Positions 50,004-59,012 of a DNA stretch of 64,000 bases are shown piece by piece. The translations under genes and the position numbers were made by a program. Numbering within the stretch: the first letter of the stretch is position 1; each line of letters begins with the position of its first letter. Under the pieces are notes generated by a model. That model saw nothing but the letters and a program-made list of their open reading frames with translations. It ran no database searches and was not told where the DNA came from. Source of the stretch: Actinomycetota bacterium (GTDB lineage Bacteria; Actinomycetota; CADDZG01; JAHWKV01); NCBI GenBank assembly GCA_019347715.1, contig JAHWKU010000002.1:211510-275509 (forward strand). Direction: 5' to 3'.

Positions 50004-50681
50004 ATGTTGAGACGTGGCCGAATCATCGTATCGATGCTGTTAGTGCTCGTACTCTTGGTTGTGCCTGCGGCCGTCGCGCATGCCCACGACGAACAGCAGA
50101 CTTGCCCGGATGCGGAGGGCGATACAGACAACAGACACCCATCAGGCAACGACAGACACTGCGAGTCCGGAGATTCATTCCCCCAGGGCAACGCGCAGAG
50201 TGATCCGGACGGGACCAGCAACGGTGGCGTTGATCAGCCGGGAGGACAAGGCGGCGATGATCACGCCGATCAGGACGCAAACAACGGCTGCGGCAACGAC
50301 GACGATTTCGAGGACGACAATAATGGCCGCTGCTTGGGTCGCCAGCCTGGGCAAACGCTTTCCCAAGAGCAAACTGAATCCAATAACGGCTCCGTCGTTG
50401 AAATCCCGAGAAAGAGTGCAGTGCTCGGGGCCGACAAGAAGCGCTCTGTTGTGGAGGAGGCGGCAGTCCTGGGCGAAACAGACAAAGCAGAAACATCAGT
50501 GCTTGGAGCTGGGTTTGCGAGACCCTCGTCGCCCCCTACGGCCGTTCTCGGAGTGGAATTCGTGAGAGGACAGGTCCTGGCAGCAACCGGTGCTCCCTTG
50601 ATCGTGCTGGGCCTGTTGAGCCTGGGTCTTATCACTTCCGGGATGGTCGTAAGGCGGACCGCCCGGAGGCGTACACGGTAG
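50004..50681 (+). CDS. Secreted Cys/Asp-rich surface protein with VLG repeats and LAATG sorting-like signal (paralog A)
   Basis: Signal peptide ending AHA, four-Cys acidic domain, 4 VLG repeats, LAATG + TM + RRTARRRTR. Confidence 0.8.
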   Translation: MLRRGRIIVSMLLVLVLLVVPAAVAHAHDEQQTCPDAEGDTDNRHPSGNDRHCESGDSFPQGNAQSDPDGTSNGGVDQPGGQGGDDHADQDANNGCGNDDDFEDDNNGRCLGRQPGQTLSQEQTESNNGSVVEIPRKSAVLGADKKRSVVEEAAVLGETDKAETSVLGAGFARPSSPPTAVLGVEFVRGQVLAATGAPLIVLGLLSLGLITSGMVVRRTARRRTR

Positions 50682-51138: not shown

Positions 51139-52524
51139 CTACTCCGCCGCACTTCCAAAGAAGGGGATACTGCCGAAGGTGAAGACGCCCCCATCCTCCC
51201 CGTTGAGCCAATAGCCGTCACCGCTGGGGTGGGCCGCGATCCCAACCACAGGGGCGCGCAGCTGGAAGTTCGCCGCGCTGCCGTAAAAGGGGATGTCCCC
51301 GAAGGTGAAGATGCCGCCGTCGGCCGCAACCAGCCAGTAGCCCTGGCCGCTGGGGTGCGCCGCGATCCCAACCACCGGGGCGCGCAGCGGGAAGTTCGCC
51401 GCGCTGCCGTAAAAGGGGATGTCCCCGAAGGTGAAGATGCCGCCGTCGGCCGCAACCAGCCAGTAGCCCTGTCCGCTGGGGTGCGCCGCCATCCCCATCA
51501 CGGGCGCACGCAACTGATAGTTCGCCGCGCTGCCGTGGAACGCTGCGTCCCAAGAGAACACTGCCCCGTCGGACGCTACCTGCCAGTATCCAGTGCCGTC
51601 GAGGTCCGGCCTCACTCCGACCACAGGGGCGTTCAGCCTTATCCCACTGGCGGATCCCCTCTCCTCATCGATGTCACGGTTACCTGAAGAGAGGGCATAG
51701 AGTTCTCCCCCAAACGCCGACGCCAGCACGCCGCTACCATCCGGATCGGCTGCGAATCCGATGACTCCAGTGTCTATCGAATAGTGCTGCTCGATTTTGC
51801 CCTGAGCCTGCGCCTGGCCGAACGACCAGGTCTCTCCTATGGGCGAGATGAGCCAGTAGCCGTCTCCGGCCACGGTCACTGCCATGCGGGGGCCGGGCAT
51901 GGCCGAGGGGATGTTTCGCAGCACCCTTCCGCTCTGAAGCCTCGCCAGCTGTTGTCGCTCGTGATCCAGGGGGATGCCGTTGGGGTGGCAGGAACCCGTT
52001 CCTTTGGACTGCTGCATCATGAGCGGAGCGGGCCCTCCCCCAGGACACTCGGCGTGATCCATCCCAAGCCAGTGGGCCATCTCATGCCTAAGCAGGTACT
52101 TGCGATACACCTCAACCGATCCGCCGAACTGCGGAGTGGTGTTTCTCCAGTTCTCGTCGTTGATCAGAATCTCGTTCCCGACTCTGCACGAATAACTCTC
52201 GTCACACACCCCTGCGCTCCTGCCGATCTCCTCGGGGGACGCAAGGACTATTCGCAGGTCTTCTCCTGACGCAACAATCTGGAAACGCAGGCTGCCGCCC
52301 AGCGAGAGTCCTCTGAGATCAGCGAAGATCGTTCGGACATCGTGACGGAAGGACCCGAGGGCGTAGTGGGTCTCGCCGCGACTCGTCACTCGATAGCGAT
52401 AGGTACGGTCCCCCTCGCCTGCCGAGACGGGAAGGCCCAAGAGAAGGCTAGCCATGACGGCGCAGGCTGCTGCGAGGGCGTATCGCCGGAGTTTGTATCC
52501 ATGGAAGGAGCCCATAAGGATCAT
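51139..52524 (-). CDS. Secreted DUF3152-like zinc metallopeptidase with C-terminal GYWLVAADGG repeats
   Basis: Signal peptide, YSCR...INDENW...HEMAHWLG...APLMMQQS, then 42-aa repeats. Confidence 0.82.
   Translation of the reverse strand: MILMGSFHGYKLRRYALAAACAVMASLLLGLPVSAGEGDRTYRYRVTSRGETHYALGSFRHDVRTIFADLRGLSLGGSLRFQIVASGEDLRIVLASPEEIGRSAGVCDESYSCRVGNEILINDENWRNTTPQFGGSVEVYRKYLLRHEMAHWLGMDHAECPGGGPAPLMMQQSKGTGSCHPNGIPLDHERQQLARLQSGRVLRNIPSAMPGPRMAVTVAGDGYWLISPIGETWSFGQAQAQGKIEQHYSIDTGVIGFAADPDGSGVLASAFGGELYALSSGNRDIDEERGSASGIRLNAPVVGVRPDLDGTGYWQVASDGAVFSWDAAFHGSAANYQLRAPVMGMAAHPSGQGYWLVAADGGIFTFGDIPFYGSAANFPLRAPVVGIAAHPSGQGYWLVAADGGIFTFGDIPFYGSAANFQLRAPVVGIAAHPSGDGYWLNGEDGGVFTFGSIPFFGSAAE
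51142..51640 (-). repeat. 126-bp intragenic tandem repeats (about 4 copies)
   Basis: GAAGGTGAAGA recurs at 51175, 51301 and 51427; central copies nearly identical. Confidence 0.9.
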
Positions 52525-54696: not shown

Positions 54697-55518
54697 CTAT
54701 TTTTCTTGCTTTGGTAGCTTGTATTGGGTGACTGGGACTTTTGCCTTATAGCCGCTCAGCAGAGACATGATCTTCTCTCTGAGCAACGGCTCTGTGACAC
54801 CAAACTTTTGCAGGACCTGGGCACCCACGCCGTCACCCTCCTGGAACAGAGCCAGTGCGATGTGTTCGGTGCCGATGTAGTTGTCTCCCAGGTTACTAGC
54901 CTCCCTCAGGGACATCTCGAGGACCTTCCTAGCCCTGGCCGTAAACGGGAGGTGTCCAGTTGGCTTGGTCGACCCAGTGCCGATCATCTCTTTGACTTCC
55001 TTGCGCGCTTCCTTCAGAGGAACCCCGAGATTGGATAGAGCGAGCGCACCTACTCCCTGTCCCTCGGAGATGAGTCCCAAAAGGATGTGCTCGGTGCCGA
55101 TGTAATTGTGTTGCAAGCCCCTCGCTTCTTCCTGCGACAGCACGATTACTCTTCTGGCCCTGTCGGTGAATCTTTCGAACATGCCCTTACTTCCGGTCGG
55201 AGGCCTTACCTCGGTTAACCACTTGACGAACTCCCTGAGCGAAGCCTCCGAAACGCGCCAGCCCCCGCCGAGCTGGATGGCTTGCAGCTTTCCATCACGG
55301 ATGTATTCGCCGACTGTCCGGGGATGGACCTCGAGGATCTCGGCCACCTCGGCAGCGGTCAGCATCTCCCCAAAGAGCTCCTCTTTCAGGGTCTGGAGTT
55401 TTTGCTTACGAGCGTCGGCCGACAGGGAGGCCTTCTTGACGGGTTTTGACCTTGCCCGAGAACTCTTGGAATTGCGCGGGCTCTTGGCCTTCGGGGAAGA
55501 CTTCTTACGTGGCGGCAT
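54697..55518 (-). CDS. HTH_17 (excisionase/MerR-like) domain fused to a ClpC N-terminal domain
   Basis: LTAAEVAEILEVHPRTV...GGGWRV then MFERFTDRARRVIVLSQEEAR...IGTEHILLGL; no AAA+ module. Confidence 0.88.
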   Translation of the reverse strand: MPPRKKSSPKAKSPRNSKSSRARSKPVKKASLSADARKQKLQTLKEELFGEMLTAAEVAEILEVHPRTVGEYIRDGKLQAIQLGGGWRVSEASLREFVKWLTEVRPPTGSKGMFERFTDRARRVIVLSQEEARGLQHNYIGTEHILLGLISEGQGVGALALSNLGVPLKEARKEVKEMIGTGSTKPTGHLPFTARARKVLEMSLREASNLGDNYIGTEHIALALFQEGDGVGAQVLQKFGVTEPLLREKIMSLLSGYKAKVPVTQYKLPKQEK

Positions 55519-55751
55519 ACTGAAGTAGGTAGAGGATGATCCGGATGCTAACGCAGTGTGCGGAGAAAAGCAAACGCGACTCGACTGACCGCAAAGTGTC
55601 GTGGGCGGTTCGATCGGGTGAAACCTATGTCCCCTTTACGGGCCTCGGTGTTCCCGTGATGACACGGCTCCGACTGAGGGAACGCTCGCTGTTGGACGGT
55701 GCGGGCGAAAGGCCCACGAGAAGGCAAGGAATCTCCGAACCATCCAAATAG

Positions 55752-55781
55752 AAACGGGCCCCCCGTTGGGGGCCCGTTTTG
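55752..55781. terminator. Bidirectional intrinsic terminator
   Basis: AAACGGGCCCCC-CGTT-GGGGGCCCGTTTT. Confidence 0.85.
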
Positions 55782-55800
55782 TTCGCCTAACCTTACCCGT

Positions 55801-56565
55801 TTACTCCCAGATGATTCCTGTGGGCGCAACCGCTTCCGACTGCGTCTTCGACATCCGGACCATGATCAGCCCGGCGATGGCGAGGAGCAGGCCTGCCAGC
55901 AGAAGAGTTGAGCTGTCGATCCCAGTTGCGGCCAGTGCCTGGCCTCGAACCCACTGTTCTCCGAGAACCGCAGTTCCCTTCGGTCCTGTCGACCTTACGA
56001 ATCCTGCTCCGAGAACCTCGGTGGTCTTGGGGGCCAGAGTTGCGCCACCAGACAGAACCTCGATCATCGGGCTTGCAGTCGTGGCCGATCCTGACCCAAG
56101 GACTTCTGTAGGACCATTGGTGACTGATCCTGATCCAAGGACTTCTGAAGGGCTACTGGTGGAGCCATTGCTGTCTCCAGCAATCTCTTCTACCTTGGCG
56201 CTGCGGGCCTTCGGGTTCTTGCCGCACCAACCTTCGTTGTCGTCCTCAAAGTCGTCGTCGTTTCCGCAGCCGTTATTTCCGTCCTGGTCGGCATGGTCGA
56301 CTCCACCGGTTTCCCCGGCCTGATCCATCCCACCGTTGGTGCGATCGGGACCACGCCCGTCGTCGTCTGGATCCGACTTCGCCTTACCCTGAGTTCCGGA
56401 TCCTCCGGATTCGCAATGCCTATCCTTGCCGGACGGATGCTGGTTGTCTGTATCTCCGAGCAAGTCTGGGCAGGTCTGGTCCTCGTGGTGGGCCAGGGCC
56501 GGAAGGGCCATGAGACTCAGTGCTACTGCAACTATCGTGAAAAAGACACCTATACGTCTAAACAT
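55801..56565 (-). CDS. Secreted Cys/Asp-rich surface protein with VLG repeats and LAATG sorting-like signal (paralog B)
   Basis: Signal peptide ending ALA, same four-Cys domain as paralog A, 5 VLG/VLS repeats, LAATG + TM. Confidence 0.8.
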   Translation of the reverse strand: MFRRIGVFFTIVAVALSLMALPALAHHEDQTCPDLLGDTDNQHPSGKDRHCESGGSGTQGKAKSDPDDDGRGPDRTNGGMDQAGETGGVDHADQDGNNGCGNDDDFEDDNEGWCGKNPKARSAKVEEIAGDSNGSTSSPSEVLGSGSVTNGPTEVLGSGSATTASPMIEVLSGGATLAPKTTEVLGAGFVRSTGPKGTAVLGEQWVRGQALAATGIDSSTLLLAGLLLAIAGLIMVRMSKTQSEAVAPTGIIWE

Positions 56566-56602
56566 TTGCTGCTTCCCGTCCTCGTCCGTTCCCCGAACGA
56601 AG

Positions 56603-56682
56603 GGCGGGTCGGTCTCGCCATTAGCTCCCCCGGTCCACAAGGCGACCGTATAAGTGATCCGGGATCAAAGCTCCCCTCTACT
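56603..56682 (-). ncRNA. Cyclic di-GMP-II riboswitch
   Basis: GGGGAGC-UUUGAU-CCCGGAUCAC..GGUCGCCUU-GUGGACCGGG-GGAGCUAAUGGCGAGACCGACCC; pseudoknot UCGCC/GGCGA; lies in the 5' UTR. Confidence 0.8.
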
Positions 56683-56770
56683 CAGACCTGGGACGGTTCC
56701 TCCTTTCGCTCATTAGTGGTTCAGGTCCGAGACCAGCTCTAATCTTTTGTGACTAGTCACTGTTAGTTAT

Positions 56771-56797
56771 CTATCGACACTAAGAGTAGGCGCTTGA
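56771..56797 (-). promoter_or_regulatory. Putative sigma28 (FliA/WhiG)-type promoter
   Basis: TCAA-N15-GTCGATAG versus consensus TAAA-N15-GCCGATAA. Confidence 0.55.
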
Positions 56798-56913
56798 GCC
56801 TGACCCCCAAGTATTTCTTCGCGCTGGGAGTGTTGTTTCTGTAAACAACTGTGGCGAAAAGGACAAGTCGGTCACCGTTTGCTCGAAATCGGGCCCGATG
56901 CCAGACTCCGGCC

Positions 56914-57543
56914 ATGAACTTTCTCGACGCGGCGGTATCCGACTACATGGCCGACCTGTGCAAACGCTTCGAGCATCCCGTCCTGGTCGAGATGGAAAAG
57001 CAGGCCTCAGAGGAGGGGTTCCCTATCGTGGGAAGGACCGTTGGAGCAGCCCTTTTGACCTTTGCCTCGGCAGTCGGCGCCAGACGAGTCATGGAGCTTG
57101 GTTCAGGATTCGGCTACTCCGCCTATTGGTTCGCTCAGGCGGTCGGGCAACAAGGGGAGGTCATATTGACGGATGGTGATTCAGCGAACCAGGAGAAGGC
57201 TACCGACTATCTCTCTCGGCTCGGCGTAGGCGATCGGTGTCGGTTCGTCGTAGGGGATGCTTTGGAGTCTTTGGGAAACGAACAAGGTGAGTTCGACATC
57301 GTCTACTGCGACATCGACAAGCACGACTACCCGCGGGCATTTGCTTCAGCCAGGCAACGGATCCGTTCTGGCGGCTTGTATATGTGCGACAACGTCCTTT
57401 GGTCGGGACGAGTAGCTACCGATGACGCCGATGAGTGGACTCAGGCGATCCGAACCCACAATGAGGCGGTCTACGGAGCGGACGACTTTCTCCCCGTTAT
57501 AGTGCCCATCCGCGACGGGGTGGTTGTTGCCCTGAAGAAGTAG
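56914..57543 (+). CDS. O-methyltransferase (Methyltransf_3 family)
   Basis: ELGSGFGYS, DIDKHDY, DNVLWSG, PIRDG. Confidence 0.88.
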   Translation: MNFLDAAVSDYMADLCKRFEHPVLVEMEKQASEEGFPIVGRTVGAALLTFASAVGARRVMELGSGFGYSAYWFAQAVGQQGEVILTDGDSANQEKATDYLSRLGVGDRCRFVVGDALESLGNEQGEFDIVYCDIDKHDYPRAFASARQRIRSGGLYMCDNVLWSGRVATDDADEWTQAIRTHNEAVYGADDFLPVIVPIRDGVVVALKK

Positions 57544-57556
57544 GAAGCTGTTCGGC

Positions 57557-58183
57557 TCAGACCGGTGTCAGATGAATCTGCAGATCCGATTCCTGCAATT
57601 CGATTTTCAGGGCTTTGAGTGCCCGATACTGCAGGACTCTGACTGCCCCTTCGCTGCGCTCCATAGCTTCAGCTACTTGGCTGCCTGAATCGCCCTTCAA
57701 GAATCGCCTCTCGAGGACCTCTCGGTGTTCCGGGCGAAGCCGTGTCATGGCTCCTCTTACGTTTTCCGCGTCGAGGGAGGATAAAACGGTGTGTTCCAAC
57801 AGATCCTCGTCGGCAAGTTCCGGAGTGGCGTGGTGCAGGACCTCACGCCTGTGCTGGGCGCTCTTCAGCTGATCCAGAAGGATGTTTCGAGCGATCCTGA
57901 TGAGCCAGGCTGAAACCTCCTGGCCTCTGAACTCGTATCGGTTGATGTTCTTGAGCGCCCGCACGAATACTTCCGCCACCACGTCTTCCACCCTGGAAGA
58001 TTCGACTCGGTTGGCTACAAAACGATGAACGCACGAGACATATGCTCGATAGAGGGCTGCAAATGCCTGGGAGTCGCCTAACTTCACACGCTGGACAAGG
58101 TCCTCAGTCTCGGAGATCGAAAGAGAGCCACACCAGCGCGATGGGATCGGTGAAGCGTCCTGCAGTTCTGTGGCTGCGAACAT
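57557..58183 (-). CDS. ECF sigma factor, BldN-like
   Basis: AFAALY, EDVVAEVFVRAL, AWLIRIARN, SEGAVRVLQYRAL. Confidence 0.88.
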   Translation of the reverse strand: MFAATELQDASPIPSRWCGSLSISETEDLVQRVKLGDSQAFAALYRAYVSCVHRFVANRVESSRVEDVVAEVFVRALKNINRYEFRGQEVSAWLIRIARNILLDQLKSAQHRREVLHHATPELADEDLLEHTVLSSLDAENVRGAMTRLRPEHREVLERRFLKGDSGSQVAEAMERSEGAVRVLQYRALKALKIELQESDLQIHLTPV

Positions 58184-58370
58184 AACTCTCCCCCGACGAA
58201 TAAAAGACTAGCCCAAAAGTACTAGTTCTTTCGACCAAAAGGATAGCTACTAAAGCAAGTTGAGCCATCCGACTGACAAGTTGATCTCACTAGCTCATGG
58301 GAATGAGCCTCTCAGCTCACCAAAGCAAGCTTACAGCCGTTACGAGATGCGATGGGATAATTTCCCGGAA

Positions 58371-59012
58371 ATGGCGCAGGCCGAAATTGCAGGGGATGAG
58401 ATCAGGATCGTAATCGCAGACGATCACCCCTCCTATGCCAGAGGCGTCGGCCTCCTTTTGAATTCAATGGCCCCGGAGATCGAGCTAGTGGGAACCGCCG
58501 GAAGCGCCGCCGAGGCGATCAAGCTCGTCGAGAAGTCCGTGCCGGACCTGATCCTCATGGATATTCAGATGCCGGGTGGAGGCATTGAAGCGACCAGACA
58601 GATCTCCGAAGAGTTTCCTGCCGTGAAGGTTGTGATGCTAACGGTGTCCGAGGACGACGAGGACATCTTCGATGCGATGAAAGCAGGAGCGAGCGGATTC
58701 TTGCCAAAGCAAGTCGAAGTCGACGAGCTCGTTGCTGCAATTAGAGCGGTCCATCGTGGCCAGGTCGTCGTGTCCCCGCTGGTGGCAGACAAGCTTCTGA
58801 GATCGGCGCCAGATGAAAGAGTTGGGCTACTGGACGTCGAGCGTTCGCTGCTCAAGTTGGTGGCGGAGGGCCGTGACAATCCCGATATCGGCAGGGAGAT
58901 GGGCATGAGCGAAGCAACCGTGAAGAGGGTCCTCAAGAACGTCGTCCAGAAACTTCACCTACACAATCGCGTGCAAGCCGCGGTCTATGCGGCCAAGAAG
59001 GGCTGGGTCTGA
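58371..59012 (+). CDS. NarL/LuxR-family response regulator (orphan)
   Basis: IADDH, LMDIQMP, MLT, GFLPK; C-terminal HTH with NRVQAAVYA. Confidence 0.92.
   Translation: MAQAEIAGDEIRIVIADDHPSYARGVGLLLNSMAPEIELVGTAGSAAEAIKLVEKSVPDLILMDIQMPGGGIEATRQISEEFPAVKVVMLTVSEDDEDIFDAMKAGASGFLPKQVEVDELVAAIRAVHRGQVVVSPLVADKLLRSAPDERVGLLDVERSLLKLVAEGRDNPDIGREMGMSEATVKRVLKNVVQKLHLHNRVQAAVYAAKKGWV

Follow-up and report, generated by a model that had tools for sequence, protein, structure and literature searches.

A candidate WhiG-type promoter in series with a c-di-GMP-II-GAG variant riboswitch ahead of a predicted sortase-anchored surface protein gene in an actinobacterium

A candidate expression unit and the signalling machinery of its host

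We suggest that in a 64,000-nucleotide (nt) stretch of an Actinomycetota genome (contig C22:211510-275509; "the window" below means this whole stretch) the minus-strand segment 56798-55745 is one self-contained expression unit, in which a WhiG-type promoter is followed by a leader of ~190 nt, by one gene encoding a sortase substrate and by a terminator. The leader contains a variant of the type II riboswitch for cyclic di-GMP (c-di-GMP). Taken as a whole, we hold this explanation to be fairly probable. In the mechanism that it implies, RNA polymerase carrying the sigma factor WhiG would start the transcript near a short palindrome. Because RsiG loaded with c-di-GMP would, following the literature, sequester WhiG, transcription would need low c-di-GMP. 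The aptamer in the leader would bind c-di-GMP or a close relative, altering access to a ribosome-binding box (GGACGGG); the dinucleotide signal would thus be read twice, and a class E sortase would link the surface protein to the wall. The initial annotation of this region had named a promoter-like site, a palindrome, a riboswitch, an LAATG-anchored protein, an extracytoplasmic function (ECF) sigma factor and a NarL-type regulator, and all of these elements are present in the sequence.

The assembly (2.43 Mb in 55 contigs, 58.8% guanine plus cytosine [G+C], 90% complete) was compared with 40 relatives, which together with the host genome (G000) make up a set of 41 genomes. Genomes flagged as unpublished, such as G021, enter the fuller counts for the relatives, and counts without them are given alongside where these were computed; G021 was used in the adjacency of aptamer and gene, in the comparison of expression platforms and in covariance model R1. 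A phylum-wide scan for the riboswitch variant returned at least 121 stretches; 80 loci, containing 85 aptamer matches, were examined.

A search set beforehand for whiG and rsiG, for a sortase and for GGDEF proteins found all of them encoded, so that the objection that this genome might have no sigma-28 factor or no sortase falls away. WhiG is recognised by NF004935 with 407 bits (equivalog cut-off 343), its gene standing 1.1 kb before the window in the context dprA-whiG-rpsB-tsf, and RsiG by PF22802 with 80 bits (against 27) and by two E(X)3S(X)2R(X)3Q(X)3D motifs. WhiG is found in 41/41 and RsiG in 38/41 of the related genomes. The enzymes of c-di-GMP metabolism are represented by five GGDEF matches and also by HD-GYP; flagellin was not found in the genome as far as it is assembled (90% complete). 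The two-motif rsiG gene lies at C11:52422-52983 on the minus strand (locus L253, 1921-2484), between genes for an HD-GYP phosphodiesterase and a coiled-coil M23 peptidase.

WhiG-type sites ahead of c-di-GMP riboswitches

The candidate promoter (56771-56798, minus strand) reads CTCAAG-N15-GTCGATAG, or equivalently CTCA-N16. As given in a 2026 preprint, the WhiG consensus is T(A/C)AA-N16 or CTCA-N16-17 followed by GCCGA, with the -35 element and the central CGA conserved, and the query built on it permitted one mismatch (10.64898/2026.01.14.699351). In our strict form of this query the -35 was T(A/C)AA or CTCA, the spacer 16-17 and the -10 GCCGA; a single mismatch was tolerated, though not within CGA. 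The segment CTCA-N16-GTCGA at 56798-56774 matches it with a single mismatch, located outside the central CGA, which upholds the sigma-28/WhiG-like promoter of the initial annotation as a candidate site. Ten nt after the -10 lies a perfect 12-nt palindrome, GTGACTAGTCAC (56749-56760), which is the only TGACTAGTCA in the genome and whose core, ACTAGTCA, is kept in the related loci L165 and L187; it may serve as an operator or mark where the transcript begins.

The evidence that carries the promoter comes from where such sites stand. A WhiG-type site was found within 200 nt at three of the four c-di-GMP riboswitch loci of the genome, compared with 90 of 2196 gene starts (4.1%; binomial P = 2.7e-4). 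The three are the locus described here, a type I aptamer on contig C11 belonging to a secreted protein and another on contig C54 belonging to a type IV pilin. Across the relatives, where each genome was represented by its best c-di-GMP-I locus (29 of ~90 matches), the strict query found a site at 7/29 loci against a background of 4.7% (P = 3.3e-4), or at 5/22 with the unpublished genomes excluded (P = 3.2e-3). When spacers of 15-16 were used and the distance was held to 100 nt, 12/29 of these loci carried a site against 2.6% (P = 4e-12) and 8/22 did so without the unpublished genomes (P = 5e-8), although the relaxed spacer was picked after inspection of the data and the relatives are not independent of one another. 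Related type II loci carried a strict site in 4/11 cases. Further to that, the -35 word recurs at diverged loci, as GCTCAAG in L187, L199 and G023 and as GCTAAAG in L165, and the window has both GCTCAAG and the spacer word CTACTCT-AGT in common with the distant locus L187. A simple scan of 55400-58400 returned no E. coli-type sigma-70 match. A weak hint as to the transcript start is given by RNA-library contigs of relatives, which cover the aptamer and end within 56712-56755 where DNA contigs continue, both RNA runs being from one study and RNA libraries being able to contain DNA; most holders among the sequencing runs carry ~9% of the sampled words, and a lack of RNA contigs over a stretch does not speak for silence. 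The enrichment of WhiG-type sites before c-di-GMP riboswitches, in this genome and in its relatives, makes serial control by RsiG-WhiG plus riboswitch plausible, and lends support to the double c-di-GMP control that had been proposed for this locus from its sequence.

Several observations weigh against this reading. On its own the match is ordinary, being one of 883 sites that the published query returns from the genome. Compared with TAAA-N15/16-GCCGATAA it has three mismatches, and sites of that quality number 2073 genome-wide against 1772 in a Markov-1 simulation; the notion that the site is special by this mismatch count alone was dropped, the count being at chance level. The fourth riboswitch locus of the genome (C7/C28) has no WhiG-type site. 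The strict query likewise found none at 7/11 related type II loci, including the closest, L165 (where the spacer is shorter by one), and those of G006 and G002, and its yield at phylum-wide GAG loci was 4/79 against 2.3% expected, which is no enrichment. The post hoc spacer, the relatedness of the genomes and the choice of one type I locus in each belong on the same side.

These observations leave room for a simpler explanation, in which the riboswitch is the sole c-di-GMP input, the WhiG-like words are there by chance, the transcript comes from a housekeeping or other promoter and the protein is an ordinary adhesin, as in Firmicutes. The chance-level mismatch count among 883 sites and the shortage of strict sites at type II loci, related (none at 7/11) and phylum-wide (4/79), favour it, and so do the GAG loci of Frankiales and Mycobacteriales, which share other upstream words (AGTTGCNCCG…, CTAGTCAC). 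What it leaves unexplained is the presence of WhiG-type sites near the aptamer at 3/4 loci of the genome and at 7-12 of 29 c-di-GMP-I loci of the relatives, and the conservation of the -35 word across diverged loci, and the simple scan offers no sigma-70-like site in its support. We regard this explanation as possible, if doubtful.

Several upstream words deserve mention in their own right. Over-represented k-mers in the upstream regions of 78 GAG loci from across the phylum included no sigma-28 words; most belonged to the 5' part of the aptamer itself, and AGTCAC and AGTTGC were obtained besides. For AGTCAC upstream of GAG loci, 0.8 occurrences were expected and 11 seen. In records of Frankiales and Mycobacteriales (loci L044-L123), many GAG aptamers have AGTTGCNCCGNNCGG and CTAGTCAC as recurring words upstream, and the upstream words of these orders may represent a type of promoter or operator different from that of the present lineage. 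Only one perfect TAAA-N16-GCCGATAA exists genome-wide, at ~21271 of contig C7 (minus strand), before a NarL-type regulator gene (C7:21167-20502; L254) upstream of secA, with GTGACTAGT 8 nt after its -10.

The aptamer and its pocket

The aptamer occupies 56598-56684 on the minus strand and is matched by RF03169 (Rfam), the c-di-GMP-II-GAG variant, over model positions 1-86 of 86 with 66.6 bits against a gathering score of 40 and, over the whole window, E = 4e-11. Scored on these same nucleotides, RF01786, the canonical c-di-GMP-II model, reaches 47.3 bits, under its cut-off of 53.5, and the GCG variant model 58.7 bits. The aptamer thus belongs to the clan as a GAG variant, and the "c-di-GMP-II riboswitch" of the initial annotation was correct as to the clan.

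With the canonical riboswitch the aptamer shares P1, P2, P3 and the pseudoknot between loop CGGUCGCC and GGCGA..CCG; it differs, apart from its score, in the pocket (GGCGAGACCG), where G replaces the canonical A69. Read as UGGCGAGACCGA against the canonical consensus GUGCAACCG, the latter taken from an alignment to the genome's second type II element, the pocket has G-A-G instead of G-C-A, followed by A-C-C-G, so that the canonical G-C-A-A-C-C-G becomes G-A-G-A-C-C-G; A70 and G73 are kept, and the change of C68 to A is offset by a compensating U in the pseudoknot loop. The numbering is that of the solved c-di-GMP-II structure, in which A69 contacts one guanine of c-di-GMP (PMC13715770, a 2026 structure paper on an engineered Bacillus variant and not on the GAG class).

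Because A69 is G in this pocket, c-di-GMP is the presumed and not the established ligand of the aptamer, a further point against the signal being read here as we propose. The changed pocket could read another cyclic dinucleotide or a related nucleotide, which would turn the locus into a two-signal unit and would be compatible with the expression unit favoured above. The substitution falls on the very nucleotide that contacts a guanine of c-di-GMP, and the same genome has a type II pocket of a different kind (GGUGAACCCG) and two type I aptamers with the canonical A, so that several pockets coexist in it. The variant classes "might recognize different bacterial signaling molecules", as the abstract of their defining paper reportedly puts it. 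At the same time, the genes behind the 85 GAG matches resemble a typical c-di-GMP regulon: 39 of the frames are complete (the other 46 are cut at the locus end), and 14 of these 39 carry a sortase signal, with GT2 or cellulose-synthase-like proteins and one GGDEF protein among the others. Judged by its associated genes, the ligand would seem to be c-di-GMP or a close relative, and a switch to another signal appears rather unlikely to us.

The further c-di-GMP aptamers of the genome have features of their own. A type II aptamer adjacent to the transfer-messenger RNA gene is found on two contigs, at C7:4327-4410 (minus strand) and C28:238-322 (plus strand) (loci L002 and L003), and has C in place of A70 in its pocket, GGUGAACCCG. 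Its copies precede two different large surface proteins, one of them ending LPRTG, and the duplication reflects either a break in the assembly or a fork between strains, at a surface-protein locus that is variable. The two c-di-GMP-I aptamers, at C11:26450-26700 (plus strand) and C54:55031-55112 (minus strand) (loci L246, L245 and L255), each stand behind a WhiG-type site; by Rfam clan choice they are of the GGC variant, yet they have the canonical A at the diagnostic place. The C11 aptamer lies ahead of a secreted protein and has a strong terminator behind it, the terminator and anti-terminator foldings of its leader being near-equal in energy (-85.1 and -84.3); the C54 aptamer lies ahead of a type IV pilin.

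Leader and expression platform

Between the aptamer and the start codon lies an expression platform of 32 nt (56566-56597, minus strand), in which the G-rich ribosome-binding box GGACGGG (56581-56575) stands 9 nt 5' of the ATG. No terminator was found between aptamer and ATG, which together with the shortness of the platform points to control at translation start. The box can pair with the 3' strand of P1 or with a CCGUCC box that directly precedes the aptamer and follows AAGGAGG. In the minimum-energy fold the upstream part of the leader forms a hairpin (56681-56731, minus strand) with arms of 10 nt at 56731-56722 and 56690-56681 that are 90% complementary; the first 4 nt of P1 fall within its 3' arm, and its loop contains AAGGAGG (56705-56699) and CCGTCC (56696-56691). 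Pairing of the P1 3' strand with the ribosome-binding box is maintained by differing sequences in G000, G006, G021 and G002, and the 5' box, which is kept in G006, G002 and G021, stays complementary to GGACGG through wobble changes. In L165 the leader is 93% identical, with one change only in the aptamer, and the flank further upstream diverges.

On these sequences, an ON switch would be expected if the ribosome-binding box pairs with the P1 3' strand, and an OFF switch if it pairs with the 5' CCGUCC. Were the ligand to close the CCGUCC:GGACGG helix, both tiers of control would shut the gene at high c-di-GMP; were it instead to release the box from its P1 partner, expression would be confined to a middle band of the signal or to its rise. 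Folding with the aptamer forced was tried as a way of choosing between the two and did not decide between ON and OFF: accessibility of the ribosome site went from 0.39 to 0.44, 0.64 to 0.51, 0.59 to 0.47 and 0.28 to 0.27, and these small shifts in differing directions are to be counted against a switch of the kind proposed.

The surface protein and its distribution

The gene controlled by this leader (55801-56565, minus strand; ATG at 56565, stop at 55803-55801) starts 32 nt after the aptamer and encodes a protein of 254 amino acids. A terminator-like G+C hairpin with a T-run (55745-55777, minus strand; ACGGGCCCCC…GGGGGCCCGT TTTCTATTT, inner stem 55767-55753) lies 3' of the stop codon, so that the unit contains a single gene. 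The protein begins with a hydrophobic signal peptide, MFRRIGVFFTIVAVALSLMALPALA, with a predicted cleavage site and corresponding to helix 2-22 of an AlphaFold2 model. Near its other end LAATG (codons 55935-55921) is followed by a hydrophobic helix (model residues 221-246) and a basic tail, VRMSK, which judged from the sequence is the signature of a sortase substrate; because the reference used for the alignment (55801-56574) has three extra residues, residue numbers of the alignment are 3 too high. The mature part consists of an Asp/Gly/Asn-rich domain with four Cys that ends in …DQDGNNGCGNDDDFEDDNEGWCG, followed by a variable linker, (T)EVLG repeats and LAxTG.

The protein belongs to no Pfam family (E up to 0.01) and to no NCBIfam family, and a search of a protein atlas gave no usable match; at least 914 relatives were found among 8000 candidates scored. 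AlphaFold2, supplied with 77 aligned sequences, built the two terminal helices only, with a mean predicted local distance difference test score of 57.7 and a predicted template modelling score of 0.24. Going by this model, the mature protein is probably a highly acidic coat or adhesion protein that is disordered or metal-dependent. It has no chaplin domain, as had been anticipated when it was described as a non-chaplin surface protein. The sortase that such a protein calls for is also at hand: the genome has two PF04203 matches, for both of which the best NCBIfam family is class E; their catalytic parts alone score 125 and 114.6 bits, short of the 160 set as cut-off for the full length.

The combination of aptamer and gene recurs in related organisms. 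Among the 41 genomes a homolog of the surface protein was found in 14 and an RF03169-type match in 7, and in 4/6 relatives with such a match the aptamer lies directly 5' of the homolog (G002:C37, G006:C35, G021:C6 and G004:C74). In metagenomic homolog loci, covariance model R1 placed an aptamer before the gene in 4/80 (L165, L187, L194 and L199), and a regular expression for the aptamer core did so in 3/74; at class-level loci the model found an aptamer in 0/8. We conclude that the pairing of riboswitch and gene is real but limited to a sub-lineage of the protein family. The idea that the Asp/Cys protein family might be a general target of the GAG variant was given up, as a hidden Markov model finds the domain behind only 2/85 of the phylum-wide matches.

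In G006 (C35:5461-5673, minus strand; L037) two GAG aptamers stand in tandem before the homolog, and a short hairpin before the first overlaps its P1. Relatives of the Asp/Cys domain include records named Saccharimonadales and Woykebacteria. Contigs of many related organisms, from a soil DNA run and two runs of metatranscriptomes, add up to a very high depth over the stretch 56228-56315 (minus strand), which encodes …DQDGNNGCGNDDDFEDDNEGWCG. A paralog with 50% identity and an LAATG motif is encoded at 50004-50681 (plus strand), directly after metG, with no Rfam match and no WhiG-type site upstream.

Neighbouring genes and remaining alternatives

Divergent from the riboswitch gene is an O-methyltransferase gene (56851-57543, plus strand; PF01596), and convergent with it is an ECF sigma gene (57557-58183, minus strand). 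The latter had been called BldN-like; its best NCBIfam match is indeed the BldN family (TIGR02952), and its 116.5 bits are far under the cut-off of 206.45, so that it is BldN-like as a best match only. Downstream of the sigma gene, where a member of that family would have its cognate anti-sigma gene, stands the methyltransferase gene, no search aimed at an RsbN-like protein having been made. Beyond it lies a NarL-type response regulator gene (58260-59012, plus strand) with receiver (PF00072, REC) and GerE (PF00196) domains and an intact acidic pocket (DD, D, T, K). With the sigma gene and a tRNA gene as its neighbours and no kinase beside it, it is an orphan, as first described. The word CCCAAAAGTACTAGTTC at 58208-58230, before the regulator gene, is like the GTGACTAGT of contig C7.

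Proximity suggests another explanation, namely that the neighbouring ECF sigma factor, the regulator or both drive or gate the surface gene, the regulator for instance by way of the palindrome. Inverted repeats bound by NarL-family dimers resemble this palindrome, and words containing ACTAGT stand before both the regulator gene (58208-58230) and the NarL-type gene on C7. In the relatives, however, neighbours and surface gene part company: the trio of methyltransferase, ECF sigma and NarL regulator is kept in G004:C95, G007:C166 and G006:C10, without a kinase match, and in these genomes the riboswitch gene or its homolog is on other contigs (G004:C74, G006:C35 and G007:C44), away from the orthologous sigma genes. 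In addition, the 13-mer AAGTGACTAGTTC has just 7 matches in the genome at up to two mismatches, with no clear regulon among them. A functional link to the sigma factor and the regulator, which had been put forward from their closeness, is thus not supported, the linkage being absent in three relatives; the trio appear to be conserved, housekeeping-like genes that have come to neighbour the surface gene by chance, and control of that gene by them is improbable. That the aptamer is a decaying relic with no regulatory function is more improbable by far, since, in spite of imperfect outer P1 pairs, it has a high score and all core positions, the 93% identical leader of L165 shows one aptamer change, and the arrangement occurs in several genera.

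Relation to known systems

c-di-GMP riboswitches are described ahead of sortase substrates in Clostridioides difficile and Bacillus thuringiensis (PMC4591827, PMC4933901, PMC7423583). As described there, in those systems too a lone gene for a wall-anchored protein has a riboswitch of the c-di-GMP clan in its 5' leader. The differences here are the host phylum (Actinomycetota), LAxTG with a class E sortase, a translational platform, the A69G pocket, an unnamed protein family and the WhiG-type promoter. The Firmicutes genes in question are presumably CD2831 and CD3246 of C. difficile and those for the collagen adhesins Cap/CbpA of B. thuringiensis.

A second parallel is the RsiG-WhiG system of Streptomyces and Rubrobacter, with which the host shares WhiG in the dprA-whiG-rpsB-tsf context, a two-motif RsiG and predicted targets of pilin and NarL type; type IV pili and response regulators are named as RsiG-WhiG targets in those texts, among them the preprint cited above (10.64898/2026.01.14.699351). 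Different here is that a c-di-GMP riboswitch stands behind the WhiG-type promoter, by which the signal would be read once more. The RsiG-WhiG texts searched make no mention of riboswitches, in the parts that were available, and a WhiG promoter and a riboswitch in series were not found in print among the titles and abstracts listed, the supplementary target lists of the preprint lying outside this search. The BldN-chaplin system of Streptomyces also offers a likeness, in that an ECF sigma gene with BldN as its best match lies 1 kb from an LAxTG protein gene; it differs in that the sigma factor here is far under the cut-off, the protein has no chaplin domain and the linkage is not conserved.

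Wall-anchored adhesins under riboswitch control are already known, and what is new is the riboswitch's position behind a promoter of a type whose sigma factor is sequestered by c-di-GMP-RsiG. If the proposal is true, the gene would be doubly locked when the signal is high, or the response would be of the band-pass or pulse kind, and the WhiG regulon of non-sporulating actinobacteria would extend from pili to sortase substrates. We put forward tentatively, as one possibility among others, that in this class of Actinomycetota many surface-structure genes (pilin, secreted proteins, sortase substrates) have RsiG-WhiG and a c-di-GMP riboswitch arranged in series, so that one messenger would be read when transcription starts and once more on the mRNA, and that at the present gene the second reader, carrying A69G, may sense a different dinucleotide, which would make a two-signal gate. 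The locus supplies natural short test RNAs for the GAG pocket variant, and a widespread, unnamed Asp/Cys-rich surface domain, with its at least 914 relatives, gains a regulatory context.

Other features of the window

Two short frames at 55536-55911 (plus strand) are what is left of a gene for a 182-amino-acid protein, of which the close relative L165 has an intact copy (1202-1750); the remnant looks decayed, its N-terminal part being gone and a frame change having been acquired. At 51139-52524 (minus strand) the window encodes a DUF3152 protein with four tandem repeats of ~35 residues each.

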